Below are positions 30,449-62,938 of a DNA stretch of 64,000 nt, piece after piece. The notes under the pieces were generated by a model. The model had not been told where the DNA came from and did not search any database. It worked only from the letters and a program-made list of their open reading frames with translations. A program made the translations under genes and the position numbers. The stretch lies in the NCBI GenBank assembly GCA_963847705.1, contig CAWKBC010000040.1, positions 1 through 64,000 of the forward strand. Reading direction: 5' to 3'. Source of the DNA: an uncultured Pseudomonadota bacterium. GTDB taxonomy: Bacteria; Myxococcota_A; Polyangia; Fen-1088. Within the stretch, counting starts at the first letter, position 1. Each line of letters starts with the position of its first letter.

Positions 30449-32089
30449 ATGACGTCCATTCGCTTCGGGGCCTGCCTGGTCTTCCTTTGCCTTTTCGGCT
30501 GCGCGCAGTCGGTCGACGTCTCCGGCACCGGTGGCAGCACCGCCATGGGCGGCGATAACGGCGAGACCCATTCAGGCGGCGCGACGGGCACCGGCTCGGG
30601 CGGTAACCCCGGCACGGGAGGAGGCGACACGACCGGCACCGGCGGTGGAACCAGCACCGGCGGCGTGAGAGGGACCGGCGGCACGACCGCCACCGGGGGC
30701 ATGACCGGAGCAGCCGGCGCGAAGGGGACCGGTGGAGCAGCCGGCGCGAAGGGGACCGGCGGAGCGGCCGGCGCGAAGGGGACCGGCGGAGCGGCCGGCG
30801 CGAAGGGGACCGGCGGCACGACCGCGGCGGCCGGGGCGACCGGCAACGCCGGGAGCACCGGAAGCACCTCCTGTACGATCACCGCGACGTCCTCCTTCAG
30901 CACCGCGATCCCGACGGTGGCGGCGGTGACCTGGACGACGACGCTCTCGACCCTCACCAAGGCGGAGATCGACTTCGCCCCCGCCTCGGGCGGAACCACG
31001 CTGGTGGCCCCCGTCGATCTCACCCAGGCCAGCTACCGCACGCTGCTGCTGGGGATGAAGCCGAGCACCAGCTACGCCTACAAGATCGTCGCCACCAACG
31101 CGAGCGGCTCCTGCACCAGCAACAGCTACACGATCATGACGGGCGCTCTGCCCAGCTCGGCGCCCAAGGTGACGGCGACGATCATGAACGCCGCGGCGCA
31201 CGACAAGGGGTTCATCGTCACCAGCACGGGGCTGGCCGGCAACACGACGTTCATCATCGACCCCGACGGCGCGGTCGTCTGGTCGGCCACGGGACCGTCG
31301 ATGCCCAGCCGATCTCACATGAGCTGGGACGGCACCCACATGTACATGATGGCGCTCAACGTCATGAACACGAACGCCGGCAACATCCAGTCGGTGGCGA
31401 TGGACGGCACCGGCAACACGACGCTCTCCGGGGTGACCACCTCGCACCACGACCTGACCGCCATCCCGGGCGGCCTCGCCACCATGCTCTGGAACAAGTC
31501 AGGGACGGACGCCCCGTGTTCGCTGATCGAGCGCGCCGACGCCACCGGGACCTTCACCACCGTCGTGGCCGACATGTCGACCGTCTACACCTCGAACACG
31601 TTCCACAGCAACGCGGTCCACTACTATCCGTCGGACAACACGTACACCGTCGGCGATCGCAACCCGAGCCTTTACGTGAAGCTGTCGCGCACCGGGTCGC
31701 TGATCTGGCAGTTCGGCGGCAGCAACCCCAAGGACCAGAGCAAGTTCTTCACCGGCGTGCCGACCTGGTCGGTCAACCATGGCCACCAGCTGCTCGGTGA
31801 CGGGACCTTCATCTTCTTCAACAACACCCCGAACGAGGCCTGGGTCTACAAGCTCAACACCACGAACATGACGGCGAGCAAGACCCTGACCTACACCGCC
31901 AGCGGCGCCAGCAGCATGGTCCTGGGCGACGTCCAGCAGCTCCCCAACGGCAACTACCTGGTCACCTTCTCGACCTCGGGCCAGATCCACGAGATCAGCC
32001 CGTCCGGCGCCCTGGTCGCCAAGTTCACCTCCAGCTCGTTCGGCTACTCCGAGTTCCGCGAGTCGCTCTACGGCCAGCCGCCCTACTAG
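30449..32089 (+). CDS. Arylsulfotransferase-like lipoprotein with Gly/Thr-rich linker
   Basis: Lipobox LFGC, SHHD, FHSNAV, NHGH, FFNN, GDVQQLPNGNYLV propeller motifs. Confidence 0.75.
   Translation: MTSIRFGACLVFLCLFGCAQSVDVSGTGGSTAMGGDNGETHSGGATGTGSGGNPGTGGGDTTGTGGGTSTGGVRGTGGTTATGGMTGAAGAKGTGGAAGAKGTGGAAGAKGTGGAAGAKGTGGTTAAAGATGNAGSTGSTSCTITATSSFSTAIPTVAAVTWTTTLSTLTKAEIDFAPASGGTTLVAPVDLTQASYRTLLLGMKPSTSYAYKIVATNASGSCTSNSYTIMTGALPSSAPKVTATIMNAAAHDKGFIVTSTGLAGNTTFIIDPDGAVVWSATGPSMPSRSHMSWDGTHMYMMALNVMNTNAGNIQSVAMDGTGNTTLSGVTTSHHDLTAIPGGLATMLWNKSGTDAPCSLIERADATGTFTTVVADMSTVYTSNTFHSNAVHYYPSDNTYTVGDRNPSLYVKLSRTGSLIWQFGGSNPKDQSKFFTGVPTWSVNHGHQLLGDGTFIFFNNTPNEAWVYKLNTTNMTASKTLTYTASGASSMVLGDVQQLPNGNYLVTFSTSGQIHEISPSGALVAKFTSSSFGYSEFRESLYGQPPY
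30707..30814 (+). repeat. 27-bp coding tandem repeat x4 (GAAGAKGTG)
   Basis: Visible directly. Confidence 0.85.
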
Positions 32090-32173
32090 GCTGTCCTGGC
32101 CCGTCGGCCCCCTTCCCGTTTCCAGTGGCGCCCACGCCGCCTGAAATGCTAGGTTCCCGGCCTCACGAAATTC

Positions 32174-32257
32174 GCGGTCGTGGCGGAACTGGTAGACGCG
32201 CCAGATTCAGGTTCTGGTGATGGTAACATTGTGGGAGTTCGACTCTCCCCGACCGCA
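32174..32257 (+). tRNA. tRNA-Leu(CAG)
   Basis: Acceptor GCGGTCG/CGACCGC, D-arm TGGTAGAC, anticodon arm CCAGA-TTCAGGT-TCTGG, long variable arm, T-loop GTTCGAC; CCA not encoded. Confidence 0.95.
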
Positions 32258-32279
32258 CAAATTCAAGTACTTAGGCGAT

Positions 32280-33512
32280 TTATGCGGCGTCCCAATCGGG
32301 TGCGGAACTCTTGCGGAAGTTCCGCAAAGAAGTCATCACCAGATCGGTTCTTGCGTCGATGACGGCCTCCGGTTTCGCGTAGTGATCCGCCGTCACCGCG
32401 AACGACTCGTGACCGAGCGCCCGCGCCACGGCATCCCCGGTGACGCCCGCTTGAACGGCGAGCGTCGCGTGCGTCCCACGAAGGCCGTGTGGGCTCACGA
32501 TCGGAGTTTTGGCCAAACGGCAGATACGCTGCACGGCCGAACGGAGCCACCATCGGTCGGCATCGGGCCCGAACAGACGCTCGGTCGGTTCCTTGCCCGC
32601 CGCCAGCCGTGCCAGCAGCGGCTGAAGCACCGCCGGGAGCCGGAGGCGTCGAATGCCCGCCCTCGTCTTGGCGCGAGGAATCACCAAGACACGCCCGTCG
32701 TCGTCGAGGTCGCGGACCAAACGGTCCGTCACCTCTGAGGCCCTCATCCCCATGAGCAGCGCCGTCGCTGCTGCCAGCGCGCCCACGTCGTCGGTCGCCA
32801 GCTCCAACGCTGTCGCCAACCATCGGCGGGCATCGTCCACCCGGTCGAGCTGTTCCTTACCTCTGGAGCGCTCCCCGAGTATCTCGATGCCATCGAAGGG
32901 CTCTGGGACCTTCGTCCAGCGCTGCTTCAGGCACCAGCGCATGAACGTCTTCGCTTCGTGAAGGACGTTGATCCGGGTATCGACGGCCGGCGGCTTCCCC
33001 GTGCGGGTCGGTCGCGAGACGTACCCGTTCCAGATTCTGACGGCGTCGTCGCAGGTGAGTGCCACGACGTAGTGGGTCTGGTCCTTGAACAGCGACCGAA
33101 GCCGCTCCAGCGTGCTGCAGATCGAGAGGGGCTTGTTCCCCTTCTCGGTCAGGTGCTTTTCGTAGGTCATCAGAGCCCCGTCGATGCTGATACCGATTTC
33201 CCTCTCAGCTTTACGGCGGAGTCTGTTGATGGCGCTTCTTGCTTCTATCTCGGTCGGAAACATCGTGTTGGTCGACTTGCCGGTGACGCGGTCGACGACC
33301 TTCACCCTCCAACCTTTTCTCTCTTGATATGGTCCATGAATGCGACGCATCGGTTTCCCTTTCGACAGGGTTGATGCGTCGCCGGATTCGTCGGCTATTC
33401 CGTTCTCAGAGAGCTGGCCTTCACCCTGATCCTGCGCGGATTCGCTGTCAACCTCGGCCAGCAGCGCCCGCAGCGCAGCGATCTGATCGGGGGTGAGCGC
33501 CGTCGTCGGCAT
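32280..33512 (-). CDS. Tyrosine recombinase / integrase
   Basis: GMRASE (R), AKT (K), HGLRGT (HxxR), LGHES, HYA (Y); start uncertain (33512 or 33351). Confidence 0.92.
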   Translation of the reverse strand: MPTTALTPDQIAALRALLAEVDSESAQDQGEGQLSENGIADESGDASTLSKGKPMRRIHGPYQERKGWRVKVVDRVTGKSTNTMFPTEIEARSAINRLRRKAEREIGISIDGALMTYEKHLTEKGNKPLSICSTLERLRSLFKDQTHYVVALTCDDAVRIWNGYVSRPTRTGKPPAVDTRINVLHEAKTFMRWCLKQRWTKVPEPFDGIEILGERSRGKEQLDRVDDARRWLATALELATDDVGALAAATALLMGMRASEVTDRLVRDLDDDGRVLVIPRAKTRAGIRRLRLPAVLQPLLARLAAGKEPTERLFGPDADRWWLRSAVQRICRLAKTPIVSPHGLRGTHATLAVQAGVTGDAVARALGHESFAVTADHYAKPEAVIDARTDLVMTSLRNFRKSSAPDWDAA

Positions 33513-33570
33513 GGCTAGGCGCACAACCTTCGGACAGGCGCGCGGAGCCTGAGCCGGAGGTCACTGGTGC

Positions 33571-34332
33571 TCATGATCGCTTCGCCCTTCGACGGCGCGA
33601 AGCGTGGGCGCTTTCAGCCGCCCTCGTCGCCGCCTTCCGACGGACCCGCACGGCCTCGGGCGCCCTTTTCTCCAGGACCTTTCGAATGGTGGTCAGAACA
33701 AGCGTGTGCCTACGGCAGGCCCATGACCGACCGAAGCGCAGCTTCTGGGCCGCGTCACTCAGGCTCCGGTCCTCGCGGTAGCAGAGGTGGAGCAGTCGCC
33801 GATCGCGCTCGGGAAGACGCTCGATCTCCACCTTTGTGAGCGCTTCGAGCTGGTCGTCCTGGACCGCCGCCGGCTGCACGAACCGCCGCCCGTTCCACCA
33901 GGCGTTGCGCTCCGTTTCATCGACCTCGGCGACATCGAGGGACGCCCCGGCCGCCGGTCCAGTCCGTTGAGTGTAGGGCCCAGCCTCCGACCCCTTTGGC
34001 GTGCCCTGCAGTCGCTTGTAGGTGCGCTTTGGGACCCAGTGATGTTTGCGGATTCCGTCGAATATCGCTCCCTTGATCCGACGCCGAGCGAAGGCCTCGA
34101 AAGGAACCCCTCTTTCGGACTCGAAGGTTTGGGCGGCCTGGAGCAGCCCGAAAGCCCCCTCGCCGAAAAGATCCGCGAGGTCGATATTGCTGCCGGCAGA
34201 TGTTGCCGCGATGCCCTTGGCGATCTCATGGACGAGATCCATGTGAGCTTCGACGAGTCGGTTGCGCGCGACCAGGTCGACCGCGGCAGTAGGCCGACCG
34301 TGGCTCTTGCTGGGTCCCTTGGGCCTTGGCAT
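33571..34332 (-). CDS. Sigma-70 family factor, FliA/WhiG-like
   Basis: Region 2 DLFGEGAFGLLQAAQTF..RGVPFEAFARRRIKGAIFDGIR; region 4 LPERDRRLL..SLSDAAQKL. Confidence 0.85.
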   Translation of the reverse strand: MPRPKGPSKSHGRPTAAVDLVARNRLVEAHMDLVHEIAKGIAATSAGSNIDLADLFGEGAFGLLQAAQTFESERGVPFEAFARRRIKGAIFDGIRKHHWVPKRTYKRLQGTPKGSEAGPYTQRTGPAAGASLDVAEVDETERNAWWNGRRFVQPAAVQDDQLEALTKVEIERLPERDRRLLHLCYREDRSLSDAAQKLRFGRSWACRRHTLVLTTIRKVLEKRAPEAVRVRRKAATRAAESAHASRRRRAKRS

Positions 34333-34379
34333 CTTTCGTCCCTCTTTCGCTCGCCGATGGCGGGCGGTAGGAACGAATG

Positions 34380-34394
34380 GCAACTGCCGTGCCT
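34380..34394 (-). promoter_or_regulatory. Sigma54 (-24/-12) promoter
   Basis: Minus strand AGGCACGGCAGTTGC = GG-N10-GC, 48 bp upstream of the sigma factor ATG. Confidence 0.7.
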
Positions 34395-34479
34395 GGCGCA
34401 GTCAGCACTGACCGGCCCAGAAAAGGCCAGAATATCGGGATCTCGACAGCGATACGACGTAGCGGTTGTTTCAACCCGG

Positions 34480-34514
34480 CGTTTCACGCTGTTTCATGAA
34501 ACGCGCGTGAAACG
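34480..34514. promoter_or_regulatory. Palindromic GTTTCA/TGAAAC array, putative enhancer (UAS)
   Basis: CGTTTCACGCTGTTTCA|TGAAACGCGCGTGAAACG, about 100 bp upstream of the sigma54 promoter. Confidence 0.55.
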
Positions 34515-34567
34515 GTCAGCCTCTCCACCTAGCCGTGCTACGTTTTAGGTGTCTAACGGGTTCACCA

Positions 34568-34812
34568 TGGCGCGCATCCAAGCCGAAGTGCAGGCACTTG
34601 CAGAGCGTATCCAAGCGCTGGCCGACGCCGATCGGGCGAAGATCCTCGCTCAGGTGATGCAGGCCGAGGGGACGAAGGTCCCCTGGTCCGCCGTTCAGCG
34701 GGTGCAGAGTCGCGTCCGCCGAATCGGGCTCCGCGGCGAGAAGCTTGACCGCGACATCGTCAGCACCGTCCGCCAGGTCCGCCGGGATCGCGCGCGCAAG
34801 TCCCGCGGATAA
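34568..34812 (+). CDS. Putative antitoxin of the PIN toxin
   Basis: Small ORF ending 3 bp before the PIN gene. Confidence 0.6.
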
Positions 34813-34815
34813 GGC

Positions 34816-35295
34816 GTGCCCGCTCCACGGGCCGTCCTCGACACGAGCGTGCTCGTCAGCGCGATACTGCGTCCCGACGGTCCGTCTGGCGCCGTGCTGA
34901 GCGCTGCGCGACGAGGTAGGTTCGTGATGATCGCGTCGCCGGCGATTCTCGACGAGCTGGTCGACGTACTGACCCGGCCCAAGCTTCGCGCGCAGGCCCG
35001 ACTCACTTTCGAGGACGTCGCGAGGATCCGCGTCGGTCTCCAGCAATTCGCCGAGACCGTCCCTGGGGCGTATCGCGACCTGGATGCCGTTCCGACGGAT
35101 CCCCAGGACAACCCTGTTGTCGCGACCGCTCTAGAAGGGGAGGCCGACCACCTCGTGACCTTGGATGAACACGATCTCCTCGCTCTAAAAGTCATTCTCG
35201 GTCGTGCTCACCGCCCTGTGCAGATCGTCAGCCCGCCAGACTTCCTCGTGACGCTGTCCCTGCGTAGGCGCGGGCGCCGCCCACGGCGAGGCTGA
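34816..35295 (+). CDS. PIN-domain toxin (PIN_3 type)
   Basis: RAVLDTSVLVSA, DPQDNPVVATA, LVTLD..DLL. Confidence 0.88.
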   Translation: MPAPRAVLDTSVLVSAILRPDGPSGAVLSAARRGRFVMIASPAILDELVDVLTRPKLRAQARLTFEDVARIRVGLQQFAETVPGAYRDLDAVPTDPQDNPVVATALEGEADHLVTLDEHDLLALKVILGRAHRPVQIVSPPDFLVTLSLRRRGRRPRRG

Positions 35296-35380
35296 GAGTC
35301 GGTAGGCGTGACGCGACGTCCCCTTCTTTCATCATATGGGCACATAGCAGTCTGCGAGCCGCTCTCCGCCGCGTGTAACA

Positions 35381-36901
35381 ATGAGCACGATGAACCTCAG
35401 CCCATCTCAGGAACGTGCCGTCGCGGCGCTCCGGCCCGATTGGCCGGATACCGAGTCGTTCGTGCTGTGGGCACCGTACGGTCTGGGGCGGTCCACGATG
35501 CTGCGCGCCGTGCAAAAGGAGCGCGGCGGAATCGTCCTCGACATGGCGTCGTATCTGGAACGCCTCACCGAGGCAGAGCCTTTGGCACTCGAAGAGACCT
35601 TGCACCAAATGCTGTTCGGCGCTCTGCGGGAGAATGAGGTCGTCCTCGTCGACGATCTTCACCTGTTGAACAGCGTCGTCTGCTGCAACAGCTTCTATCC
35701 GAAAAAGGACTTTCTCAACGCGCCACTCGAGGTGGCCGCGGCGTTCGCACGCGAAAAGGGTCGCAAGCTGGTCTTCACGATGCCGAGCGGGATGCCGCAG
35801 CCCATCGCCGGGCGCGCCCACTTCCAGGGATACAAGCGGCTCCAGCCCGCCGACTTTCGGTTCTTCTTCGACCTCTACCTCGGCGCCGACGGTGGGGATC
35901 TGGACGTCGCGAAGATTCATCGCTTTGCGCCCAAGTTGAATCTGCACCAGATCCGACTCGCCAGCCTGGAGCTGCGGCGCAAGGGGAAGCCAACCACCGA
36001 CGGCATGATCGACTACCTGCGCACGTCGCAGATGATCAGCAACGTCGACATCGGCGAGGTCCAGGATGTCGACCTCTCGTCGCTGCGCGGAGTCGACGAT
36101 ATCGTCGCTGCGCTCGAGGCGAACATCATCTTGCCGCTCGAGGACGACGTGCTGGCGACCGAGCTCAAGATCAAACCCAAGCGCGGCGTCTTGATCGCGG
36201 GTCCGCCCGGAACCGGAAAGACCACCATCGGCCGGGCGCTCGCCCGGCGCCTGCGTGGCAAGTTCTTCCTAATCGACGGAACGTTCATCAGCGGGTCGCG
36301 CAACTTCTACCAGCGCATCCATCAGGTCTTCGAAGGCGCGAAGCAGAACGCCCCAGCCGTTATCTTCATCGACGACAGCGACGTCATCTTCGAGAACGGC
36401 AAGGAGCATGGTCTGTACCGTTACCTCCTCACGGCGCTCGACGGGCTCGAGAGCGAGAGCGCCGGTCGCGTGTGCGTGATGATGACCGCCATGGACGTGG
36501 GCGCCCTCCCGGCGGCGTTGGTGCGCTCGGGACGCGTCGAGCTGTGGCTCGAGACGCGGCTGCCGGATCGTGGTGCGCGCCTGCAGATCCTGCAGGATCT
36601 GATGCGCGACGTGCCGCCGCCGTTTCCAGAGGCCGATCTCGAGAAGCTGGCCGACGAGACCAACGATATGACGGGTGCCGACGTCAAGCGCCTGATCGAG
36701 GACGGCAAGGTTCTCTTCGCCTACGACCGCTCCCGCAAGCTTCCCCTGAAGCCAGTGACGGATTACTTCGTCCAGGCTATCGCGACGGTCCGCGAGAACA
36801 AGAAGCGCTACGCCGAAGCCGAGGCCCGAATCCGCAGCCGCCCGCACATTCCGGAGAATCCGTACGGCTACGTCCCAGATTTCGGCGGCGACGACGACTG
36901 A
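35381..36901 (+). CDS. AAA+ ATPase with degenerate N-terminal P-loop and intact C-terminal AAA module
   Basis: APYGLGRST / VLVDD; GPPGTGKT, IFIDDSD, LVRSGRVE. Confidence 0.85.
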   Translation: MSTMNLSPSQERAVAALRPDWPDTESFVLWAPYGLGRSTMLRAVQKERGGIVLDMASYLERLTEAEPLALEETLHQMLFGALRENEVVLVDDLHLLNSVVCCNSFYPKKDFLNAPLEVAAAFAREKGRKLVFTMPSGMPQPIAGRAHFQGYKRLQPADFRFFFDLYLGADGGDLDVAKIHRFAPKLNLHQIRLASLELRRKGKPTTDGMIDYLRTSQMISNVDIGEVQDVDLSSLRGVDDIVAALEANIILPLEDDVLATELKIKPKRGVLIAGPPGTGKTTIGRALARRLRGKFFLIDGTFISGSRNFYQRIHQVFEGAKQNAPAVIFIDDSDVIFENGKEHGLYRYLLTALDGLESESAGRVCVMMTAMDVGALPAALVRSGRVELWLETRLPDRGARLQILQDLMRDVPPPFPEADLEKLADETNDMTGADVKRLIEDGKVLFAYDRSRKLPLKPVTDYFVQAIATVRENKKRYAEAEARIRSRPHIPENPYGYVPDFGGDDD

Positions 36902-41305: not shown

Positions 41306-42064
41306 TCACTTGGCCTTTTTAGGCGTGGGCGGCTGAGACTTCTGGCGCCAGGAGTCGGCGTCGATGTCGATGACGTGGCAGTGCTGGACGAAGCGGTCGA
41401 CGAGGGCGGCGACGCAGGCGGCACCGGGAAAGACCGTGCCCCACTGCTTGAAGGGCAAATTCGTGGTGATGACGACGGACCTGGTCTCGTGCCTGCGGCT
41501 GACGATGTTGTAGAGGAGATCGGCGGAGCGGCTGTCGCAGGGGAGGTAGCCGAGCTCATCGACAATCAAGAGCTTCGGCGCGAGGTACCTGTGGCGCAGA
41601 GCGCGTTCGAGAGCGGGCAGCGACTCGCGACGAAGGAGATCGGTCAGTAGCGCGGCGAGGCTAGAAAAGCGGACGGAGTGGCCGCGGGTGAGGGCGGCGA
41701 AGCCGAGATTCTGCGCGAGCGTGGTTTTGCCGACGCCGCTCGGCCCGCGCAGGAGCACGTTGTCGCCGCGCTCAAGGAAATCGAGGTTGGTGTGCAGGCT
41801 CTCATAGAGGTTGCGGTCGATGGAGCGGGGATGGTTCCAGTCGAAGCGGTCGAGGGTGGTGAATTTGCCGAGGGTTGCGAGGCGGGTGCGCGCGGCGAGA
41901 TTGCGGCTCTCGCGTTCGCGGCGCTCCATCTCGACCAGCTTCTCGCAGGCCTCGACGGGGCCGATGCGACTGTGGGTGGCGTGCTCGAAGAGAGCGCGGA
42001 GCGCGGCCAGCGAGACGCGGAAGCCGAGCTGGCGCAGCTGGGTGGCGATGTCATCGCTTGGCAT
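41306..42064 (-). CDS. istB: IS21 helper ATPase
   Basis: GPSGVGKT, LLIVDELGY, ITTNLPF, DRFVQHC. Confidence 0.93.
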   Translation of the reverse strand: MPSDDIATQLRQLGFRVSLAALRALFEHATHSRIGPVEACEKLVEMERRERESRNLAARTRLATLGKFTTLDRFDWNHPRSIDRNLYESLHTNLDFLERGDNVLLRGPSGVGKTTLAQNLGFAALTRGHSVRFSSLAALLTDLLRRESLPALERALRHRYLAPKLLIVDELGYLPCDSRSADLLYNIVSRRHETRSVVITTNLPFKQWGTVFPGAACVAALVDRFVQHCHVIDIDADSWRQKSQPPTPKKAK

Positions 42065-43526
42065 CGTAGCCCCCGAGATCGTGCGGGATGACGTCGCGGT
42101 CGGGGATGCCATCCCCGAGCGGGATATCGATGGGGACGGGATGCTCGGCGGCGCGGCGGTGCTTCTCGCACAGCACGCCCACTTCGCCGGGGTCGTGCGT
42201 GCCGCGCTCGACGGTTTCCGCGACGGCCTTCCCGAAGATGTCGGCGCCGTAAAGGTCGAGCAGCTTGCCGGTCTGGGCCACCATGCTTCCGATGTTGCGG
42301 CCCGCCTCGACCCAGCGCTCGATGAGGACATCGACTTGTGGCGCGACGGTGCGCAGTCGATCGCGGCCGGCGGAGGGCGCGGCGCCGCGCTTGCGACGCA
42401 GGATCTCGGCACGGTGATCGGGATGCTCGATCTTCTGGCGGTGGCCCCACGAGCGGGGGTGCTGGGCGACGACGGCGGCGCCGTCGAGCAGACGGACGGA
42501 GCGATCGTCGGCGACGATGGTGAGGGTGCGCTCGACGTGGTCCGGCGGCACCGAATAGACGTTGGTGTCGAAGCGGGCGAAGGCGGTCTTGTCGACGAGC
42601 ACGGGCTGTACCACGTCAGTGGCGGGCATCGGGTCGGGCAGCGGGAGCAAGCGCTGCTTCTCCTCGACCAGGCAGTCGGCGATCGTGCGTTGCGGGAAAT
42701 TGGGATGTCGCTGCTGGTGCGCGATGGTGTCGATGAAGGCGAGCAGCTCCCGGTTGCCGTGCTCGACGTCGTAGATGTCGCGGCCAGCGAGGAAGCGCTC
42801 CCGAAGGAAGCGAATCTTTCGCTCCACGCGTCCCTTCTCGTTCCCCCGGTACGGGGCGCACAGCCGCAGCTGGACGTGCATGGCGCTGCCGAGGTCGAGG
42901 AGCAAGGGATGGAAGCGGGCCGCGTCGCCGTGCCGTTCGAGCACGACAATCTTCGGATTGTCGAAGAGCCACTGGCGGGTCGAGCCGCCGAAGTAGGTCG
43001 ACGCACGCGCCAGCGAGCGCAAGAGCGAGTGCACGGTGGTGTCGAAGCAGAATTCACCCCACATGGCGCGCGACCAGGCCAGCACCATCACGAAGAGCCA
43101 CAGTGAGCGGCTGCCCCCGCCCGGCACCGGAATCTGCCCGACGTGAGCCCAGTCGATCTGAGCCTGCTCGCCGATGAGGGGATCGAGACGCAGGAAGGCC
43201 TCGCGCTTGGGCGTGGGACGCGCCGTCATGACGAAGCGGCGCAGGGTACGGGCGCTGCCGCGAAAGCCGCGCTCCTTGAGCATGTCGAGCAGCCGCGTCG
43301 ATCGCAGGCGCGGATACTTGAGCAGCGTCTCATTGATGAAAGCGACGTACGGCACGACGAGGAGAGATCTCCGCTCGACCCGATCGGTTCGGGGCCGTAG
43401 CAGCCCCAGAACGCGGCGGACGACATCCTCGTGGACGCCGAGTTGGGCGGCGATGGTGCCCACCTTCCAGTGCTCGGCGTGATGAAGGCGCGCGATCTCC
43501 GCCTCGACTTCGGCGGCGACGGTCAT
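42051..43526 (-). CDS. istA: IS21 transposase
   Basis: GEQAQIDW, LFDNPK, EKGRVER DDE motifs. Confidence 0.94.
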   Translation of the reverse strand: MTVAAEVEAEIARLHHAEHWKVGTIAAQLGVHEDVVRRVLGLLRPRTDRVERRSLLVVPYVAFINETLLKYPRLRSTRLLDMLKERGFRGSARTLRRFVMTARPTPKREAFLRLDPLIGEQAQIDWAHVGQIPVPGGGSRSLWLFVMVLAWSRAMWGEFCFDTTVHSLLRSLARASTYFGGSTRQWLFDNPKIVVLERHGDAARFHPLLLDLGSAMHVQLRLCAPYRGNEKGRVERKIRFLRERFLAGRDIYDVEHGNRELLAFIDTIAHQQRHPNFPQRTIADCLVEEKQRLLPLPDPMPATDVVQPVLVDKTAFARFDTNVYSVPPDHVERTLTIVADDRSVRLLDGAAVVAQHPRSWGHRQKIEHPDHRAEILRRKRGAAPSAGRDRLRTVAPQVDVLIERWVEAGRNIGSMVAQTGKLLDLYGADIFGKAVAETVERGTHDPGEVGVLCEKHRRAAEHPVPIDIPLGDGIPDRDVIPHDLGGYDAKR

Positions 43527-43897
43527 CGGCGCTCTCCGTGAACGAGACTGAGCTGCCGCAGATCACGAAAGTCGCCGATGCCGGCGATGCGCCTGCGGCG
43601 GCGGCGGGTCGGTCGCTCCACGACCTCGACGGTGTAGTAGACGCTGCGCTGGGGATTGCCTATCTCGTCGGTGAGCCCGAATGAATATGTAGCGTCCGCT
43701 TCGGCCGCAGACACAACAACGCGCGGGCAGCGATCGAGCCACAGGGCCAACGCTTCCAAGAGCGAGAGGACTGCCCGGTCGTTTCGGACCTGCCCCGGCG
43801 GTGGCAGCACCGCGCGCATCAGCTCGTCCGCCCCCGCCGTCACCAGGATCCGGCTGCGCGCCGTCGAGAAGGACATGGTCACCGTGTACTCGCTCAT
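43523..43897 (-). CDS. IS21 passenger ORF, hypothetical
   Basis: Stop overlaps the istA ATG; MSEYTVT...[11 protein letters not shown]. Confidence 0.65.
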
Positions 43898-44246
43898 CGT
43901 CATCGCTCCCGCCGGTGATCTCGGGCCCGACGGAGATCGGCGGGGTCGGACCACTCGGCCCCTGCGATTTCGAGCGAAACGCAACTTTCTCGGTACCCAT
44001 ATCCGTCACCGGCGCGCGCCTGGTGACGGCAAGTCGCCGCCGCCATGCCCGAACGTGATCACGGTGATCGAGCCGTCCTTCTTCGCTCCGTCGGTGGCGC
44101 GCATTGGCTGCGCGTCGGGCGCGCGCTCGACCTACGTCACGACAGCTCGGGCAATAGATCTGCCCGCGGAAATCTCGCCGGCACACGAAGAAGACGCGTC
44201 GGCACAACGCGCAACCCAGCTGAAATAGAGGCTCTTCGTCTTCCAT
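43563..44246 (-). CDS. IS21 passenger ORF, putative Zn-finger protein
   Basis: [17 protein letters not shown], Arg-rich helix, later CCVCG. Confidence 0.6.
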
Positions 44247-45479: not shown

Positions 45480-45598
45480 GCCATGGTCCGTGCGCGAAGA
45501 TGCCCCCGGAGTTGAACTCCTCGCCGCGCTCTTTGGGCCAGCTTGAGAAGCCGCTGGCGAACGGACGCGACCAGATCGCGCGGGGGCCGTGCCTTCAC
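45480..45598 (-). pseudogene. Truncated AbiEii-type toxin remnant
   Basis: Overlaps the antitoxin stop; MKARPPRDLVASVRQRLLKLA, then (shifted) RGEEFN, then lost. Confidence 0.6.
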
Positions 45599-46209
45599 GA
45601 GACGACCGCTTCCAGATAGGGCCTCATCACGTTCACTACGCGCACGACGGACGCGGCCTCGGTGAGGTCGTCCATGGGCCGGCGCGAACGACGGTGCTCG
45701 CGGAGGGCCTCTAGCGCCACGTCGAGCCCGATCTTGTTGCGGTACTTGAAGCAGTCGGCGACGGTGCGGGCGACGGTCGTGACCCTGACGGGTACGCCCT
45801 CGATGACGTGAACCTCGACACCGTGCTTGAGCGCGGCTCCGGAGAACCGGACGATCCGGAGCGGAAGATCATGAACGGTCGGCTTGCGATCCTTGACCCC
45901 GATGGCAAGCCAGGTCTCGAAGGGAGCCTGGGTCCCGAGGCCGTGAAACTGCAGGGCCGACAGAAGGCAGACCACACCATTCGGTACGCGGAGGGCAGCG
46001 GCAGCGAGGCCGTGGTGCTCCGTGGCCTGGAATCCCGCCGCCGGGTAGAGGCCTCGCCCCAGCCGTTCCAGCTTGCCAGCCTCGACCAGTCTGCGGATGG
46101 CGGGACGCGACGTCCCTTTGGCTTCCAGGTCACGGCTACGCATGAGCCTGCGCCGGCGGCTCAGGTCAGCTTGATGCCTTGGGCCAGGCTGTGTACGTTT
46201 CGTCGGCAT
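45595..46209 (-). CDS. Type IV TA antitoxin, AbiEi family
   Basis: LERLGRGLY, GVVCLLSALQFHGL.TQ, ARTVADCFKYRNKIGLDVALEAL. Confidence 0.9.
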   Translation of the reverse strand: MPTKRTQPGPRHQADLSRRRRLMRSRDLEAKGTSRPAIRRLVEAGKLERLGRGLYPAAGFQATEHHGLAAAALRVPNGVVCLLSALQFHGLGTQAPFETWLAIGVKDRKPTVHDLPLRIVRFSGAALKHGVEVHVIEGVPVRVTTVARTVADCFKYRNKIGLDVALEALREHRRSRRPMDDLTEAASVVRVVNVMRPYLEAVVS

Positions 46210-47317: not shown

Positions 47318-47977
47318 TTAGTTTTTCAAGGCAGCGTCAGGGACACCGCGCAAGCGCCATCCCTGAGCCTTCGACGTCGCGTAGCAGACTTCGTCTCGCG
47401 CCACCCATCCTCGACCCGAACAGGTCGCGAGGTCGCGCAGGCTTCCGGCTTTGGCGAGGGCGTAGCCGAGCTCTCCCTCCGGCGTGTTGGCCCACGAGGC
47501 CAGGGCCGCCGCGCTCGCGTATTGGCGTCGCGTCAGCTCGCTCCCGTTTGCGAAGCCTGCGATTTGGCCGTGCGAGTAGGCGAACCAGGCGACAAGCGTG
47601 AGGCACCCAGTCGCCGCCCCAACGCAGGCGGTAGCCCATTTCAAAGGGTTCATCCGCTGGCTGTCCCGCTTAGTGACTGCGGCTGACGCCTCGGCCGCCG
47701 CGCGAGAGACGGCCGCCTTCGCCGTTTCCAGGGCGGCGCTGATCTGCGCCGCTGCGGTCGCCTGAACGTCCCGCGTCGCAGCTCTTGCAGCCTCCGTGAT
47801 CAGCGCCGGGATGCGTTCGTAAAGCGTCCTGTAGTGCTCGAGCACCATGAGCAAGAGCCAGAGGGAGTCGTTGCCTTTCAGCTTCAGCGCGTCCCTGACT
47901 CTGTACAGATTTTGCCTCTCCTTCTCGGTCGCCTGACGTCCGAGGAGAAGCGCAAAGCTCTCCTCGATATTAGCCAT
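47318..47977 (-). CDS. Mobilization protein MobE / TraM-like
   Basis: LLGRQ...LYRVRDAL.L..ND.LW..L..LEHY, one TM; coupled to mobD. Confidence 0.7.
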   Translation of the reverse strand: MANIEESFALLLGRQATEKERQNLYRVRDALKLKGNDSLWLLLMVLEHYRTLYERIPALITEAARAATRDVQATAAAQISAALETAKAAVSRAAAEASAAVTKRDSQRMNPLKWATACVGAATGCLTLVAWFAYSHGQIAGFANGSELTRRQYASAAALASWANTPEGELGYALAKAGSLRDLATCSGRGWVARDEVCYATSKAQGWRLRGVPDAALKN

Positions 47978-48653
47978 GGACGACCTCCGCCAGCATCAGG
48001 CGACATTCTTCCCGCCACCGCTCGAGCTCCATTCGATCGCCCAGCGACAACTCCGTCGACGCCTTGGTGATCGTGAGCCGTCCTTTGTTCATCGCGTCTG
48101 TCACTCGATCTGCCAGCTCGGGGAAGTTGAGCGACCTGCCGCCGGCATCCTCGATGGACACCTTCATCTTCGAGCCGTTGTAGAGCTCGAACTTCCCCTC
48201 GGTCCCGAGATAGGTATTCCGGACGACGTGCATCTCTGCTTCAGGGATGGCCCCGGCGAAGTCCTTGAGCAGCTCGAGACTTTCCCGCTTTCGATCGATC
48301 AGCCAGAAGACGACCAGCTTCCTTTTGAGCTCTGGAAGCGCCATCCCCAGGGTCTTGCCGAAATTGCTGATGCCGGTCTGATTCCGTGCCCCCGTGTTGA
48401 TGACGATCGCGCTCTCGGCCTTGCTCTCGATCAGGTTCACGAGGTCGATCCAGCCCTCGCGTTCGTCCAGGTTCACCAGCTCGCCTCCGATCGTGTCCCT
48501 GTAGGTCTTGTAGACGTCGGGAACCGATGTGTCCGTCTCGACGAGGAATGGCCCCTCGCCGCTGCCTTCGAGGTAGTCGATGAGCGCGATTGAGAAGAGC
48601 GACTTACCGACTCCGCCCTTGCCACCTCCGACGAGAAAAACTGACTTCGACAT
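47970..48653 (-). CDS. Mobilization protein MobD / TraL-like P-loop ATPase
   Basis: GGGKGGVGKS, ETDTSVPDVYK, VINTGARN. Confidence 0.8.
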   Translation of the reverse strand: MSKSVFLVGGGKGGVGKSLFSIALIDYLEGSGEGPFLVETDTSVPDVYKTYRDTIGGELVNLDEREGWIDLVNLIESKAESAIVINTGARNQTGISNFGKTLGMALPELKRKLVVFWLIDRKRESLELLKDFAGAIPEAEMHVVRNTYLGTEGKFELYNGSKMKVSIEDAGGRSLNFPELADRVTDAMNKGRLTITKASTELSLGDRMELERWREECRLMLAEVVHG

Positions 48654-48667
48654 GTTCGTCCTCCTGG

Positions 48668-49063
48668 TTAGTAGCTGTCCTTGTCCGTCACGAGAAATGC
48701 CTCTTTGCCTGCCCGCTTGACGCCTTCATCCGTTGCCGGTTTTGCCCGCGAAGGCGTCTCCGCCTTCGCTTGTGGGGGTGGCGCGGCGGATCGCGTTCGC
48801 GTTGCGACCGCGTCCTTGCCCCGTCGCCGCTTGGCTCTCTGCAGGTAGCTCTTCAGCGTCGGGGTGGTGATGTCGAGCCCGACACCGTGCAGGCTCTCGA
48901 CGACCTGCTCGATCGTGTATCCGCGTGCCTGCAGGGCGGCGATCTCCCGAGCGAGCCGTCGTACCACCGCCTGTTTGGTCAGCTTGCGTTTCGAGCTGTC
49001 CATCGGAGGAAGCCCGCGCAGTGCGCTCGCCATCAGGTCGGATTGTTCCAACGTGTATGCCAT
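48668..49063 (-). CDS. Mobilization protein MobC / TraK-like
   Basis: LRGLPP...KQAVV..L..EI..LQARGYT...TLKSYLQR; first gene divergent from oriT. Confidence 0.7.
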   Translation of the reverse strand: MAYTLEQSDLMASALRGLPPMDSSKRKLTKQAVVRRLAREIAALQARGYTIEQVVESLHGVGLDITTPTLKSYLQRAKRRRGKDAVATRTRSAAPPPQAKAETPSRAKPATDEGVKRAGKEAFLVTDKDSY

Positions 49064-49339
49064 CTGCTTTCTCCCGGATGCGCGCTCCGCCCTCACGGGG
49101 AACGAGCGCTTTGTCTGTCGAGCTCTCCGCTATTCCAGTCGGCCAGTTCTCCGGCGTTGTTTCCTGCTTCGAGCTGCGAAGCGAAAATAGTTCCCGCTGC
49201 GGCGCTCTCCTTTCCTACCGCCCAGGTGCCGTGGCTCCGTCCACGTGACGGTGCCGGCGGAAACATCGCGAGGCGTCCGGCCGACTGGAAGAACGTGCCG
49301 ACCGTGCCTACGCGAATGCCTTCATCGAGTGTCGATGGA

Positions 49340-49360
49340 CGGATAGCAGGATGGGGGCTT
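49340..49360 (-). other. Putative MOBP oriT nic site
   Basis: Minus strand CATCCTG^C matches the RP4-type YATCCTG^Y consensus, between divergent mob operons. Confidence 0.7.
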
Positions 49361-49514: not shown

Positions 49515-49826
49515 ATGCCGTTTCGTAGGAAGGGAAAAGCGGGTCTCACGGCCCGCCTCGACGTGCGCGTCTCGCCCGCCGAGAAGAAGCAGCTTGGGGG
49601 CATCGCTCGCGAAGCGGGCCTCCCCGTCGCCGAGCTGGTGCGCCTGCGCGCGCTCGGGCGGCCGGTCGTGTCCCGCACGGACGCCACGACCATCCGGGAG
49701 CTACGGCGCCTCGGGGGCCTGCTCAAGATGGTCCACGTCGAGAGCGGCGGCGCCTACCGCCAGCAGACGGCCGAGCTGCTCACGATGCTGCGCGCCGCGG
49801 TCGGCAAGCTGGCGGGCGGGCAGTAG
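49515..49826 (+). CDS. Relaxosome accessory protein MobB / TraJ-like (RHH)
   Basis: LDVRVSPAEK..L...A..AGL.VAELVR..ALGR, IRELRRLGGLLK. Confidence 0.85.
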   Translation: MPFRRKGKAGLTARLDVRVSPAEKKQLGGIAREAGLPVAELVRLRALGRPVVSRTDATTIRELRRLGGLLKMVHVESGGAYRQQTAELLTMLRAAVGKLAGGQ

Positions 49827-49839
49827 GGAGGCAGGGACG

Positions 49840-51861
49840 ATGATCGTCAAGAAGGTCCCCACGTCCAAGCACGCCCCGGCCAAGAGCAAGGCCCACAACG
49901 TGCGCGCCCTCGCCGACTACATCGCCGGCCCCAAGGCCGGCGGCGCCGGTGAGAAGGTGGAGCACCGCGGGGCTCTGAACCTCCTCAACCTCGATCACGA
50001 GGGACAGGTGCAGGAGATGATCGACCTCGCCGAGACGGCCAAGCGCAGCCCGCAGCCGGTGCAGCACTGGATCATGAGCTGGCGGGAGGGGGAGCAGCCG
50101 ACGTCGGCCCAGGCCGATCAGGCGGCCAGGATGTTCCTGGACGAGATGGGCTTGGCCGGCCACCAGGCGCTCTATGGATTGCACCGCGACACGGAGAACT
50201 GGCACCTCCACCTGGCCGTCAACCGCGTCCACCCCGAGACGGAGAAGCTCGTCACCGTCAACAACGGCTTCGACCACGAGGTCGCCCACCGGGCGATCGC
50301 TCGCATCGAGCACGCGCAGGGGTGGCAGAGGGAGGAGCGCGGCCTGTTCCAGATGCGGGAGGACGGGCGCGTTGAGCGCGCACGTCCGCGCGACGAGCAA
50401 GAACGCAAGCCATCCGTTCGAGCCCGCGATTTCGAAGAGCGGGTGGGCGCCCGGAGCGCCGAGCGTGTGGCCATCGAGGACGGAGCGCCCGCCATCCGCG
50501 CGGCCGGGAGTTGGCGGGAAATGCACGAGGCCCTGGCCGAGAAGGGGATGCGCCTCGAGAGGAAGGGCTCAGGCGCGATTCTGTGGATCGGCGATCAACC
50601 GGTGAAGGCGAGCAGCGCCGGCCGCGACTGTTCCATGTCGGCGCTCCAGAAGCGTCTGGGCGAGTTTCAACCTGCGAGGGATACCGCGCGCGTGATGACA
50701 CGCACCCGAGCCCCCGAGCCGATCATGCCCAGCGCCCCCGGCTGGAAGCAGTACACCGACGCACGACGACAGCACTACCTGGAGCGTTCCCGCAGACGGG
50801 AACGGCAGATGGAGCAGCAGAGGAAGGGTCGGGAACGCATGGCCGCTCGTCATCGGCAAGAGCGAGCAGACATCTTTCGCGGATCCTGGAAGGGACGGGG
50901 CGCTCTCCTCAACGCGACCAGGAATCTGCTCGCCGGTCGTCAAGCGCAGGAAAAGGCCGAGCAGCTTGATCGCCAAAGGCTGGAGCGCGGGGTACCGGAC
51001 AAGGACCGGGGACGGTTCCCGAGCTACGAAGAATGGCTTCACCAAAGGGATCACGGGCTCGCGCAGGGGTGGCGACATCGAGAACGACGGCCGCCTGGCA
51101 TAGAGGGGCCGACGTTCGTGCGGCCCGCGCCCCAAGATATCCGCGCGTTCGCCCCGGTCGTCGAAGGTTGGCACGTCCACTATCGTCGCGTCGGCGAGCG
51201 CGGCTCCCCTGCCTTCACAGACCGGGGTAAGGAGATCGACATCTACGACAGCAACCGACGGGAAAGCGTCCTCGCCGCCCTCCAGTTGAGCGCCCAGAAG
51301 TGGGGCGCGTTCACCATTCGCGGAAACGAGCGGTTCCGGAGCATGTGCGTCGAGTTGGCAGCAGAGCACGGCTTCAAGATCGCGAACCCGGAGCTCCAGC
51401 AAGCCATCGTCGCCGAGCGGAAACGGATTCGGACACGTGGAAGAGAGCGCACGACGGCGCCTGTGCGCCGCGCGGTCGAGATCGTGGCGACTCGGACGCC
51501 AGCGGACGTCTATCGGCGTCACCTGGCGGATGTCACCCGGGAGCGCCCGGGTCAGCCCGTCGACCCCTCGCGGGTCGATACCGAGATCGCTGTTCGCATG
51601 CGTCTTGCGGGCCATCGCCGGGGCGAAATCGAGCGAGCGATCAGAGAGGCCGTACCGGCAGATCGGCGCGGCGAGACGCGCGATTGGGATGTTTACGCGA
51701 AGCGCACGGTGGCAGTCGCCTTCGGTATTCCTGGGGACCGCCTATCTGAGCACCTCAGACGGCAGCACGACCGATTCCGCCGCCTCCAAGAGCGCCATCG
51801 CGAAGAGCCCGAACGCCTACCGCCTGGCGATCCATTCTCCCGCTCTGGACCCGAACGCTAA
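49840..51861 (+). CDS. MOBP relaxase (TraI/MobA) with LPD7-like and RepB C-terminal-like domains
   Basis: LADYI (catalytic Tyr), HWIMSW, HRDTENWHLHLAVNRVHP; FTDRGKEI..AALQL..QKWG. Confidence 0.92.
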   Translation: MIVKKVPTSKHAPAKSKAHNVRALADYIAGPKAGGAGEKVEHRGALNLLNLDHEGQVQEMIDLAETAKRSPQPVQHWIMSWREGEQPTSAQADQAARMFLDEMGLAGHQALYGLHRDTENWHLHLAVNRVHPETEKLVTVNNGFDHEVAHRAIARIEHAQGWQREERGLFQMREDGRVERARPRDEQERKPSVRARDFEERVGARSAERVAIEDGAPAIRAAGSWREMHEALAEKGMRLERKGSGAILWIGDQPVKASSAGRDCSMSALQKRLGEFQPARDTARVMTRTRAPEPIMPSAPGWKQYTDARRQHYLERSRRRERQMEQQRKGRERMAARHRQERADIFRGSWKGRGALLNATRNLLAGRQAQEKAEQLDRQRLERGVPDKDRGRFPSYEEWLHQRDHGLAQGWRHRERRPPGIEGPTFVRPAPQDIRAFAPVVEGWHVHYRRVGERGSPAFTDRGKEIDIYDSNRRESVLAALQLSAQKWGAFTIRGNERFRSMCVELAAEHGFKIANPELQQAIVAERKRIRTRGRERTTAPVRRAVEIVATRTPADVYRRHLADVTRERPGQPVDPSRVDTEIAVRMRLAGHRRGEIERAIREAVPADRRGETRDWDVYAKRTVAVAFGIPGDRLSEHLRRQHDRFRRLQERHREEPERLPPGDPFSRSGPER

Positions 51862-56365: not shown

Positions 56366-56454
56366 CGCTGGATCAAGATACCGTCGAACCTTTGCTTCGG
56401 CAAGGCTATGTCAAATCATGTCGACATAACATTTGATATACTCTTCGCGAGGAC

Positions 56455-56916
56455 ATGGATATGTCGGACTCAGAATCAGATGTCGATCAGCGTCCAGCCG
56501 CTCAGGAGTTGTTCGCGAATCTGAAAGGCGCGCTGCCCGACCTAAAGGCGCTCCTCGAGAAGTGCGGCAGCCACTGGGGCTACGAGGATCCTGTGTATCG
56601 ATTCTATCACCACAGCTTCAAGGTCTATCGTCTCTAGGAGACCACGGCCGAGATCGTAAAGGCACTCCAGACCCTGGCGCCAGGGCGGGAGCTCCACGAC
56701 GAGTTCATGCGGATCGTTCGAGAAGGCACCGGGAAGGCGTTCGCGCTCGAGCACAACGCGGTCTGGCTGGAAACGACGCGTCCGATCCTGGAGGCCTTCT
56801 TCCATGCCCGCTTCTTCCTCGAGATGGCGGTCCGATACGGCGAGGGACTGGAGTCACCGCCGAACCTGCTGCCAAGTGGCTGGGCCGCGCTACTCTATCT
56901 CTACGACTTGCGCTGA
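56455..56916 (+). pseudogene. Conserved-looking hypothetical gene with an in-frame TAG at 56635-56637
   Basis: ORFs 56455-56637 and 56707-56916 share one frame and read continuously across a single TAG. Confidence 0.7.
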
Positions 56917-58379
56917 CGACCCGGCCAGCGCTGTTCGATGGTGCGCTTTAGTCCGGGGCTCTTGCGGACCCGACGCCAGAGGGTGACACGCGTTGTTCGT
57001 GAATACGCAGCGACGTCGCCGCGGTTGCCGTGGAACCTTTCGAACAATGCCAGGATCTGTTCGTCCGTGAGTTTGGTGTGGGCCGTCGACCTGCCCCTGA
57101 CGATCGATGCATCATTCTGACTAGAACCAGAAGCGTGGCCAGCCAGAAACTTCTTCACAACTCGGTGGGTGTCGTACGGGGGATCGGTCGCCTTGTGGAG
57201 AAGGTTTCGCGCCAGACCGAGGAGGTCCCGAGCATTCGCGGGGAGCGGGGATAAAGCCACGGCCGCGACGTCGCGCGCCAAAAGCCATGGGCGGGACAAC
57301 GGGCGATCATCAAGGAAGCGTTGAAATTCCGCGGCGTCTCCCGCCTCATTTCGCAGGAAGTGCACGAGCAGGCAGCCGACATCTTCCCGTCGCTCCCGTA
57401 GTGGCGCAAGAGCTATAGAAACGGCGCTTTCGAGCCGGTTGTTGAGCGTGCGCTCGAATCGCTCTTCTTTGACCCACTCTTTCAGCTTGCGGTCGGTGGC
57501 GGCTACGACACGAACGTCGACCCTTTCAGGCTTGGAAGTTCCCAGCGGCAGTATCTCGTGATCGTCGAGGACCCGGAGCAGCATGGGTTGAACTTCACTG
57601 GTCAAATGGCCGATTTCATCGAGGAAGATCGTCCCACCGGCAGCCGAGCGAAAATGGCCGGGTACGTCCGCGGTCGCTCCTGTGAATGCCCCCTTCCTGT
57701 GACCGAACAACTCAGCACGGGCCTGTCCGGCTTCCAAAGTGGCCATGTTGACGGGAACGAACGGTCCCTTGGCCCGAGGTCCGGCCTCGTGCAGGGCGCG
57801 GGCGGCAAGCTCCTTTCCGGTTCCACTCTCCCCCTGCAGGAGAACAAACGTGTCGTTTCTCGCAGCGCGCAGGACCGATCGCCGAAGCTCCTCAATAGCG
57901 TCGCTGGTCCCGAGGAGACCAGACACCGCGGACCGAGTGATCGGTGGGTGAACTAAGTGCAAGCAGAACACGAAATGCCGCCCGACCGTGATCACCACTC
58001 CGGCGCGCACCTCTTCGGGTGACAGATTGCGGGAACCTGCGAGAGGCTCGAGGTTTACCTGGACTTCGATCCCCGGGTCGCACCGTTCAAGTTTGAATCC
58101 CTTCTCATAGCGGATGGCGAGAGCAGGAGCCTCACGGCGACCGATTGCAGGGTGGGCGAGCGGTTGCCCCTCGTCCAGTCCCGGCACGAGAAAATCCGGC
58201 TCGGATCTGCTGAGGTGCACAACTCCCGAGCCCACGATCAGCGTCTCTAACAGCGCGATCTGGCCGACGCGCTCGAGGTTTGGGTGCCAGACGATTGTCA
58301 ACGCCGGGAAGGCGAACAGCGGTCCGGAGTTGGACGGATCGCTTGGACCAAACCTGAGCGTCGCTTCGTCATCAACCAT
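56901..58379 (-). CDS. Sigma54-dependent enhancer-binding protein (FHA-like / AAA / HTH)
   Basis: [21 protein letters not shown]-terminal GNRGDVA..RVTLWR. Confidence 0.88.
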
Positions 58380-61940: not shown

Positions 61941-62127
61941 CCTGCACCAATCCCGTGAGCGCCAGTGAGCGCTCCTGGGCGAAAGGCCCCTGGCGCGCGC
62001 TCTGAGGGGCGTTCGCCACCGCGGTCGGCGCCCAGGCCGACGACGCCGACGAACGCTGAGCGTCGGGGCCAGCGGCTACGCCCCCCGATGAACAGCAGGA
62101 GGCACTGTGGCGTGGAGTTCGTGGAGC

Positions 62128-62931: not shown

Positions 62932-62938
62932 CTGACGG

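Follow-up and report, generated by a model that had tools for sequence, protein, structure and literature searches.

The HrpR/HrpS, sigma-54 and HrpL system of Pseudomonas syringae is the textbook cascade leading from an activator to a sigma factor, and it controls type III secretion. Its three components, an enhancer-binding protein, a sigma-54 promoter and an alternative sigma factor with regions 2 and 4, are also present on the element described here, an integrative mobilisable element (IME) by anatomy, which begins in the first 64 kb of contig CAWKBC010000040.1 (C40) of an uncultured Pseudomonadota bacterium (GTDB lineage Bacteria; Myxococcota_A; Polyangia; Fen-1088; assembly GCA_963847705.1; genome of 6.1 Mb). 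This whole stretch of 64,000 nucleotides is called the window. The Hrp system differs in serving type III secretion and not DNA mobility, in that HrpL is an extracytoplasmic function sigma factor, and in that HrpR and HrpS are not known to have an FHA domain. In Tn916, according to the available part of the report, an element-encoded sigma factor, Sig7-Sig8, is located upstream of xis-int on one transcript, positively regulates the genes for excision and transfer and is required for excision; it consists of two subunits, switches on its own promoter and receives its priming from tetracycline read-through (bioRxiv 10.64898/2026.10.01.756105). The island shows instead a single FliA-derived chain, a sigma-54 promoter with an enhancer array, no mating-pair apparatus and candidate targets at the origin of transfer (oriT). 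Control of the Sig7-8 type is not found in it: the sigma factor is one chain of regions 2 and 4, and no notable sigma-28-like site precedes its gene apart from one overlapping the array. In the islands mobilised by SXT and IncC elements, a flagellar-type regulator (SetCD or AcaCD) times excision and transfer, and small islands answer the regulator of their helper; SetCD is an FlhCD-like activator and not a sigma factor, it is released by SOS-driven loss of SetR, and the accessible text of these sources describes no sigma-54 or enhancer step (PMC5812530, PMC5704250). The core of the island array equals the Salmonella PrpR enhancer, as given in the available part of its description, at 13/14 positions (PMC4987338). 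PrpR/prpBCDE, compared at the E. coli prpB locus, shares with the island a GTTTCA-type half-site hexamer, a multi-copy array about 100 bp upstream of the -24/-12 element and a similar recognition helix; PrpR differs in sensing 2-methylcitrate and controlling metabolism, while the island activator has an FHA sensor. RP4-like MOB_P integrative mobilisable elements share a tyrosine integrase at a tRNA gene, a MOB_P relaxase, NikA/TraJ-like and TraL-like genes and divergent promoters around oriT, with no coupling-protein or mating-pair genes seen; the literature searched yielded no description of a private sigma factor controlled by sigma-54 in such elements. The initial annotation had proposed a sigma-54-gated alternative sigma factor as a control logic unfamiliar from described IMEs, and the largely open-access literature searched contains no description of such a private sigma factor on any mobile element that we could find.

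The locus is read here, with a rough probability of 0.55, as the activation switch of a mobilisable island, leading from an activator to an array and sigma-54 promoter, from these to a sigma-integrase operon and from the sigma factor to the oriT promoters. An activator with an FHA domain would bind the half-site array and fire the sigma-54 promoter, with a phosphothreonine input whose probable source is a Ser/Thr kinase encoded by a larger helper element or by the host. The promoter would transcribe sigma and integrase together in one operon; two divergent oriT promoters serving the relaxase and accessory genes would then be switched on by the sigma factor. The basis of this reading is the conserved promoter and array, the cassette of the activator family, the FHA fold, the site pair at oriT and the selection on the sigma factor, from which we infer binding, transcription, the phosphothreonine input and which activator acts. 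If true, it is a complete testable circuit made of a phospho-sensing activator, a sigma-54 gate, a private sigma factor and oriT promoters, and a second case, after Tn916, of an element using its own sigma factor as master switch, here held off by the activator requirement of sigma-54. The switching-on of conjugative and mobilisable elements in myxobacteria is little described in the literature searched.

The near-consensus -24/-12 promoter that had been reported directly upstream of the sigma gene occupies 34394..34380; transcription is predicted to start near 34368, 36 nt ahead of the sigma ATG at 34332. The same pattern shows 36 occurrences in the genome, about 4e-4 per given 150-nt one-strand window. 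Contig C30 contains an open reading frame (ORF) with what we take to be the RpoN box, so the host encodes RpoN. The half-site array lies 100-145 bp upstream of the predicted start, within the 80-200 bp expected of an enhancer and in agreement with the spacing claimed earlier; the claim of four half-sites in a 35-bp palindrome is corrected to five (GTTTCA at 34468, 34481 and 34491, TGAAAC at 34497 and 34508) in an imperfect palindrome with spacers of 4 and 5 nt. The 12-bp array core is unique in the genome, and clusters of at least three half-sites within 50 nt are only two: the window array and one directly behind a paralogous activator on contig C16. The close sigma clade (64-96% identity) contains 12 loci, and 10/10 aligned upstream regions show no variation in either the array core or the -24/-12 motif; L212 and L213 (= L046), in which the 5' end is broken, were left out of this alignment, which collapses just left of the first half-site. 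No match to the array-plus-promoter pattern was found in viral contigs, and a sigma-70 promoter scan of 32000-36000 gave nothing. The prediction of an enhancer followed by a sigma-54 promoter is well supported by the 10/10 conservation, the family cassette and the likeness to the PrpR enhancer. Among 89 family genomes, the 12-bp core is present in 10: three are clade loci, and seven are lone matches without array, mostly in apparently coding DNA, which were dropped as chance. Locus L001 shows at 7076-7110 a degenerate second enhancer array without sigma-54 site, 1.8 kb upstream of the first, which suggests shuffling of cargo through recombination at the array. A 12-bp sequence located at 34357-34368, the predicted sigma start, recurs between the oriT promoter candidates, at about 49212-49223; this was seen post hoc and may be chance.

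The activator with an intact GAFTGA motif that had been assigned to the same island is indeed inside its att-bounded limits (32205-65559). Its Walker A and Walker B motifs are also intact and the C-terminal helix-turn-helix (HTH) is present. The N-terminal domain, modelled at a predicted local distance difference test score (pLDDT) of 94.5, matches FHA domains with Z 13.8 and a root-mean-square deviation of 2.2 over 105 aligned residues (Foldseek E 1.6e-4). Sequence methods are weak or negative for FHA (Pfam 0/15 members, hhalign probability 0.6%, Atlas leads <0.9), and the domain is seen by fold search alone. This fold suggests a phosphothreonine input; Arg 58, invariant in 15/15 members of the activator family, may take part in phosphothreonine binding. 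The genome contains exactly two members of this family, the island copy and the one on C16, among roughly 43 sigma-54 activators. The C16 activator is 46% identical to that of the island; behind it come an array with the same hexamer, then a sigma-54 site, the gene of a related sigma factor and another integrase gene. The recognition helix of the island activator, RVTLWRR, is the closest to that of PrpR (RTTFWRR) among the roughly 43, and the protein is not a PrpR member, scoring 208.9 with TIGR02329 against a cut-off of 499.2. The candidates for the cognate activator are the island copy, 22 kb away, and the C16 paralogue acting in trans. A fresh truncation of the island activator was considered and rejected, because six relatives at 55-88% identity share the single-HTH end. 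A convergent gene at 56433-56951 overlaps the activator gene in its final codons and shows, by eye, an apparent in-frame stop; this block is 97% identical in the relative G074.

The sigma factor shows only regions 2 and 4 in Pfam, and a variable linker replaces region 3. FliA/WhiG (TIGR02479) is still its best-matching family, at 93.2 bits with a cut-off of 189.6; since it scores below the cut-off and has no region 3, it stands outside FliA/WhiG (sigma-28, group 3), and it may work like FliA. Regions 2 and 4 are under purifying selection, with ratios of non-synonymous to synonymous substitution (dN/dS, Nei-Gojobori estimates) of 0.23-0.39, and the linker shows 0.57-1.07. In a tree built by a quick method, the window sigma is one of 17 mobile sigmas that form a supported group separate from the host copies, and other element-borne sigmas are placed elsewhere. 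The sigma search matched 79 of the 89 family genomes, mostly through a single-copy FliA-like paralogue of the host, which shows no sigma-54 site and stands beside a secretion-ring-like gene in most loci examined. In viral contigs scanned with the sigma alignment, only 41 distant generic sigma loci, 25-46% identical, were found, as judged from the listing. An example of the host copy is L074 7092-9127 (contig C32), a single-copy FliA-like sigma without region 3 beside a secretion-ring-like lipoprotein gene, an arrangement present in most family genomes; the host sigma is likely kin of the mobile sigmas, and the mobile clade of the island sigma would descend from such a FliA-like host factor.

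Ten oriT regions, when aligned, share a bipartite motif that is conserved some 90 bp ahead of nic. A sigma-28-like matrix was trained only on the relaxase-facing sites of 8 other elements. The two promoter candidates at oriT are the top two matrix matches of the island, at 20.5 bits each (the next has 13.3), and rank 8 and 9 genome-wide. Scoring covers 28 of the 29 oriT loci found, with 24 control windows. The reverse site, never used in training, reaches at least 18 bits in 8/28 loci and at least 12 in 13/28, and the controls give 0/24 and 2/24, respectively. In its -10 part the site agrees with the E. coli sigma-28 octamer, as given in the available part of the source, at 5/8 positions here and 8/8 in the island on contig C29, with a spacer one base longer (PMC2859248). 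Before the sigma gene itself, the only notable sigma-28-like site is an 11.2-bit one overlapping the array. In a single matrix scan the motif was also found before topoisomerase-activator genes in L044 and L048, with no MOB_P oriT found in the stretch fetched. In G068 the activator gene is at the end of a traKLM run, and an activator within such a sigma-driven operon would close a feedback loop.

The sigma gene is co-oriented with the integrase gene, as the initial annotation had stated, and its distance of about 60 bp holds for the in-frame ATG at 33512 (59 bp) and not for the conventional start at 33350 (221 bp). The 54-codon leader between these two starts could be an N-terminal extension or a remnant similar to a recombination directionality factor. 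The 19-codon mini-ORF that overlaps the sigma stop and ends 2 nt ahead of the leader may provide translational coupling. These stop-start overlaps suggest one transcript. The terminator scan of the locus found no terminator-like site on the minus strand. The matrix scan found no sigma-28-like site of at least 10 bits ahead of the window integrase; the integrase is more likely co-transcribed with sigma. By layout, sigma and integrase would form one operon read through from the sigma-54 promoter. The integrase shows dN/dS of 0.07-0.19 with 4 relatives. Six other modules contain an HTH_17 excisionase-like ORF after the sigma gene (Pfam E 3e-7 to 8e-3), which in L038 overlaps the sigma stop. Motifs of 15 bp and 10 bp upstream of the integrase start (33376-33410) recur in the right end (contig C40 65418-65464), with 3 genome copies each, and are possibly integrase or excisionase sites for autoregulation.

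Co-occurrence of integrase, sigma, array and activator across islands was the check proposed earlier; the wider family shows a compact cassette of activator, array, promoter and sigma, and the close clade no adjacent activator. Family f1 shows 27 activator loci with readable 3' end: in 14 the activator, array, sigma-54 site and sigma gene follow within 400 nt, in five the sigma gene is 1.4-3.3 kb further on, and in eight, the window included, there is none. Outside the family, sigma lies within 6 kb of the activator in 0/37 readable class-level loci (40 fetched; L278 and L281-L282 are outside this count). The array hexamer varies with the recognition helix, by eye and in few independent cases: TGTTCG-type arrays mostly accompany helices with YE or YD, GTTTCA-type arrays those with FSRR or FWR. 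This natural set of pairings would be useful for decoding enhancer specificity or for orthogonal sigma-54 switches. The third island, on C29, shows a sigma-54 site, a sigma gene and a third integrase type without GTTTCA array. Many cassette loci belong to larger elements that also encode a TrbB-like ATPase, Ser/Thr kinase, PEGA protein, topoisomerase I, RadC or SSB. Only as a tentative proposal, put at clearly less than even odds, these would belong to a Polyangia-lineage element family run by a kinase-gated cascade, in which an element Ser/Thr kinase acts on the FHA activator, this drives sigma-54 transcription of the FliA-derived sigma and xis/int, and the sigma factor drives the transfer genes; an activator in a sigma-driven operon (traKLM-activator in G068, topoisomerase-activator in L044 and L048) would close positive feedback, each element would have its own helix-enhancer code, and smaller islands would eavesdrop. 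Loci L135, L136, L137, L133, L138, L141, L044 and L048 show kinase, lipoprotein, PEGA protein, FHA activator and sigma genes, followed by unknown ORFs and lipoproteins, and some of them carry the TrbB-like ATPase, topoisomerase I, RadC or SSB; they are candidate helper conjugative elements. In L280, L288, L294 and L309, outside the family, activators of the same double-HTH kind precede long tandem half-site arrays with sigma-54 sites, after which come genes other than sigma.

Several observations weigh against the proposed switch. The island activator lacks the second HTH of its family and no kinase gene is beside it, the matrix scan found no sigma-28-like site ahead of it, and no activator adjoins the array in the other close-clade loci (9/9), several of them on short contigs. 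G074 retains only the last 17 codons of the activator gene, 37 kb from its relaxase gene, and G073, a genome 73% complete, shows no match to the N-terminal query. The forward oriT site reaches at least 12 bits in only 6/20 untrained loci, and variant oriT sites are present in small islands that lack a sigma gene between traL and integrase (G000 C35 and C44, G009, G026:C106 and G011), so a host sigma, or a sigma in trans, could read them. The sigma gene is frameshifted or truncated in G074, L213/L046 and P0008. The integrase gene of G073 is convergent with sigma and belongs to a different clade, so the constant link may be that of sigma to excisionase, and the conserved element upstream of the integrase tracks integrase type and not sigma type. 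An alternative that is possible, if on the unlikely side, keeps the sigma-54 switch as real and has it fired in trans by the activator of a helper or of another island, the island's own activator being unrelated cargo; it differs from the reading preferred here in who binds only. Array and promoter are kept without adjacent activator in 10/10 close-clade loci, the C16 activator stands beside the same hexamer, the Fic-ORF-activator block moves or decays independently, and islands eavesdropping on SetCD or AcaCD are a precedent in the part of the source available (PMC5704250). The recognition helix of the island copy, the nearest to that of PrpR in the genome, speaks for this copy, as does the recurrence of activator relatives after the relaxase: L134 shows a 51%-identical remnant there, and run X1 shows a relaxase-to-Fic joint and a full activator contig with a depth of 11.5 vs 12.2 for traK/traL. 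A further hint, no more than suggestive, is that the contigs bearing a clade sigma and a 77%-identical activator fragment are each 114,489 bp long.

The remaining alternatives concern what the sigma factor reads and what the array is. It is rather doubtful that a host sigma reads the oriT sites, or that these are sites of relaxosome proteins, with the island sigma serving other targets or being the decaying leftover of a larger conjugative ancestor. The sites on sigma-less islands, the FliA-like paralogue of the host and the several broken clade sigmas would be accommodated by this explanation; it is opposed by the purifying selection on regions 2 and 4, by the finding that the strongest site pairs are mostly on sigma-bearing elements, by the motif ahead of the topoisomerase gene in L044 and L048, and by the lack of enrichment of the motif near the host paralogue (3.3 vs 2.9 per 100 kb genome-wide). 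The cascade as worded in the initial annotation, in which the island sigma directly transcribes the integrase gene and so brings about excision, is unlikely. The two genes are adjacent and co-oriented in 15/16 modules with three integrase clades, a sigma-28-like -10 half lies about 40 nt ahead of the 33350 start, and one relative (L065) has a 14.7-bit site before the integrase; the window integrase, however, shows no full site of at least 10 bits, the stop-start overlaps point to a single transcript, and the integrase upstream element is also kept without such a sigma adjacent (L002, L146). Read-through from the sigma-54 promoter agrees with this layout, and the best candidate targets of the sigma factor flank oriT. 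Operator of the divergent toxin-antitoxin pair and integrase arm site, the two refuting explanations named with the original claim, are very improbable roles for the palindrome. The array is 54 bp from the antitoxin start in the window, where the pair is variable cargo found beside the array only here and, at greater distance, in L206; 8 of the 10 loci keep it without an antitoxin-PIN pair beside it, and it thus is not the operator of that pair. Its distance from att is 2.2 kb, and the repeats that flank att have another motif.

The island is inserted in a tRNA-Leu gene (Table 1), in a genome whose homologue names indicate Myxococcota, class Polyangia. Beyond the window its att core recurs twice on the contig, at 65506 and 75132, which places two islands in tandem, the first of 33 kb. 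The integrase, the att repeats, the MOB_P relaxase and oriT, with no mating-pair apparatus found, make the first an IME by anatomy: no coupling-protein or mating-pair families were found among 32 ORFs scanned, and the last 1.5 kb, beyond the window, was read by eye only. The traK and traM labels were given by position, on the order which we take to be that of RP4, and the nic/oriT block is presumably of RP4 type. RNA runs were used as assembled contigs only, which carry no start, strand or level information. One such contig of a relative, with a depth of 3, joins the right inner flank, the att core and the integrase end, and would fit an excised circle (attP-like) or a tandem copy.

Table 1. 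Features of the island and its insertion site in the window
Feature	Position	Strand	Remarks
tRNA-Leu(CAG)	32174..32258	+	last 54 nt (32205-32258) are the att core
Tyrosine integrase, 356 amino acids	32280..33350	-	catalytic R-K-H-R-H-Y present
Short repeats just inside left att core	32299..32326	.	candidate integrase arm sites, motif unlike the GTTTCA array; further copy inside right end, contig 65436
54-codon leader in frame with integrase	33351..33512	-	clade-conserved, 46% identical in L002
19-codon mini-ORF	33515..33574	-	start overlaps sigma stop; stop 2 nt ahead of leader start
Mobile-clade sigma-70-family factor	33571..34332	-	FliA-like region 2 and region 4, no region 3
Sigma-54 -24/-12 promoter element	34380..34394	-	GG at 34393/34392, GC at 34381/34380, 10 nt apart
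Half-site array	34468..34513	.	five half-sites; predicted enhancer for FHA-type sigma-54 activator
Antitoxin-PIN pair, divergent	34567..35295	+	variable cargo, outside the module
traK-like, TraL-like and DUF6753 (traM-like) genes	47318..49063	-	
Sigma-28-like promoter candidate	49136..49164	-	faces traK-like gene, 20.5 bits
Sigma-28-like promoter candidate	49259..49287	+	faces nic, traJ-like gene and relaxase, 20.5 bits
Candidate nic site	49344..49353	.	within highly conserved oriT block
NikA/TraJ-like accessory gene	49515-49826	+	
MOB_P relaxase	49840-51861	+	NF041893, 300.7 bits, cut-off 250
Sigma-54 activator, candidate enhancer binder	56901..58379	-	FHA-fold N-terminal domain, AAA+ domain with GAFTGA, single Fis-type HTH

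The cargo contains at 41306-44246 an inserted IS21-family element (IstA, IstB) with two small upstream ORFs, and at 45595-46209 an AbiEi-type antitoxin gene, the partner of which is largely missing in the window and is a 306-amino-acid ORF in the relative G074. Two regions of lower G+C content, 52666-55086 and 60963-63544, contain genes for a metallophosphoesterase, a nucleoside deoxyribosyltransferase-like protein and a HAD protein and may be defence genes; run X1 skips the block 52666-55086. The second tandem island (contig C40 65506-75185), at the same tRNA, shows an integrase of another clade and an excisionase-like ORF, with no sigma match.

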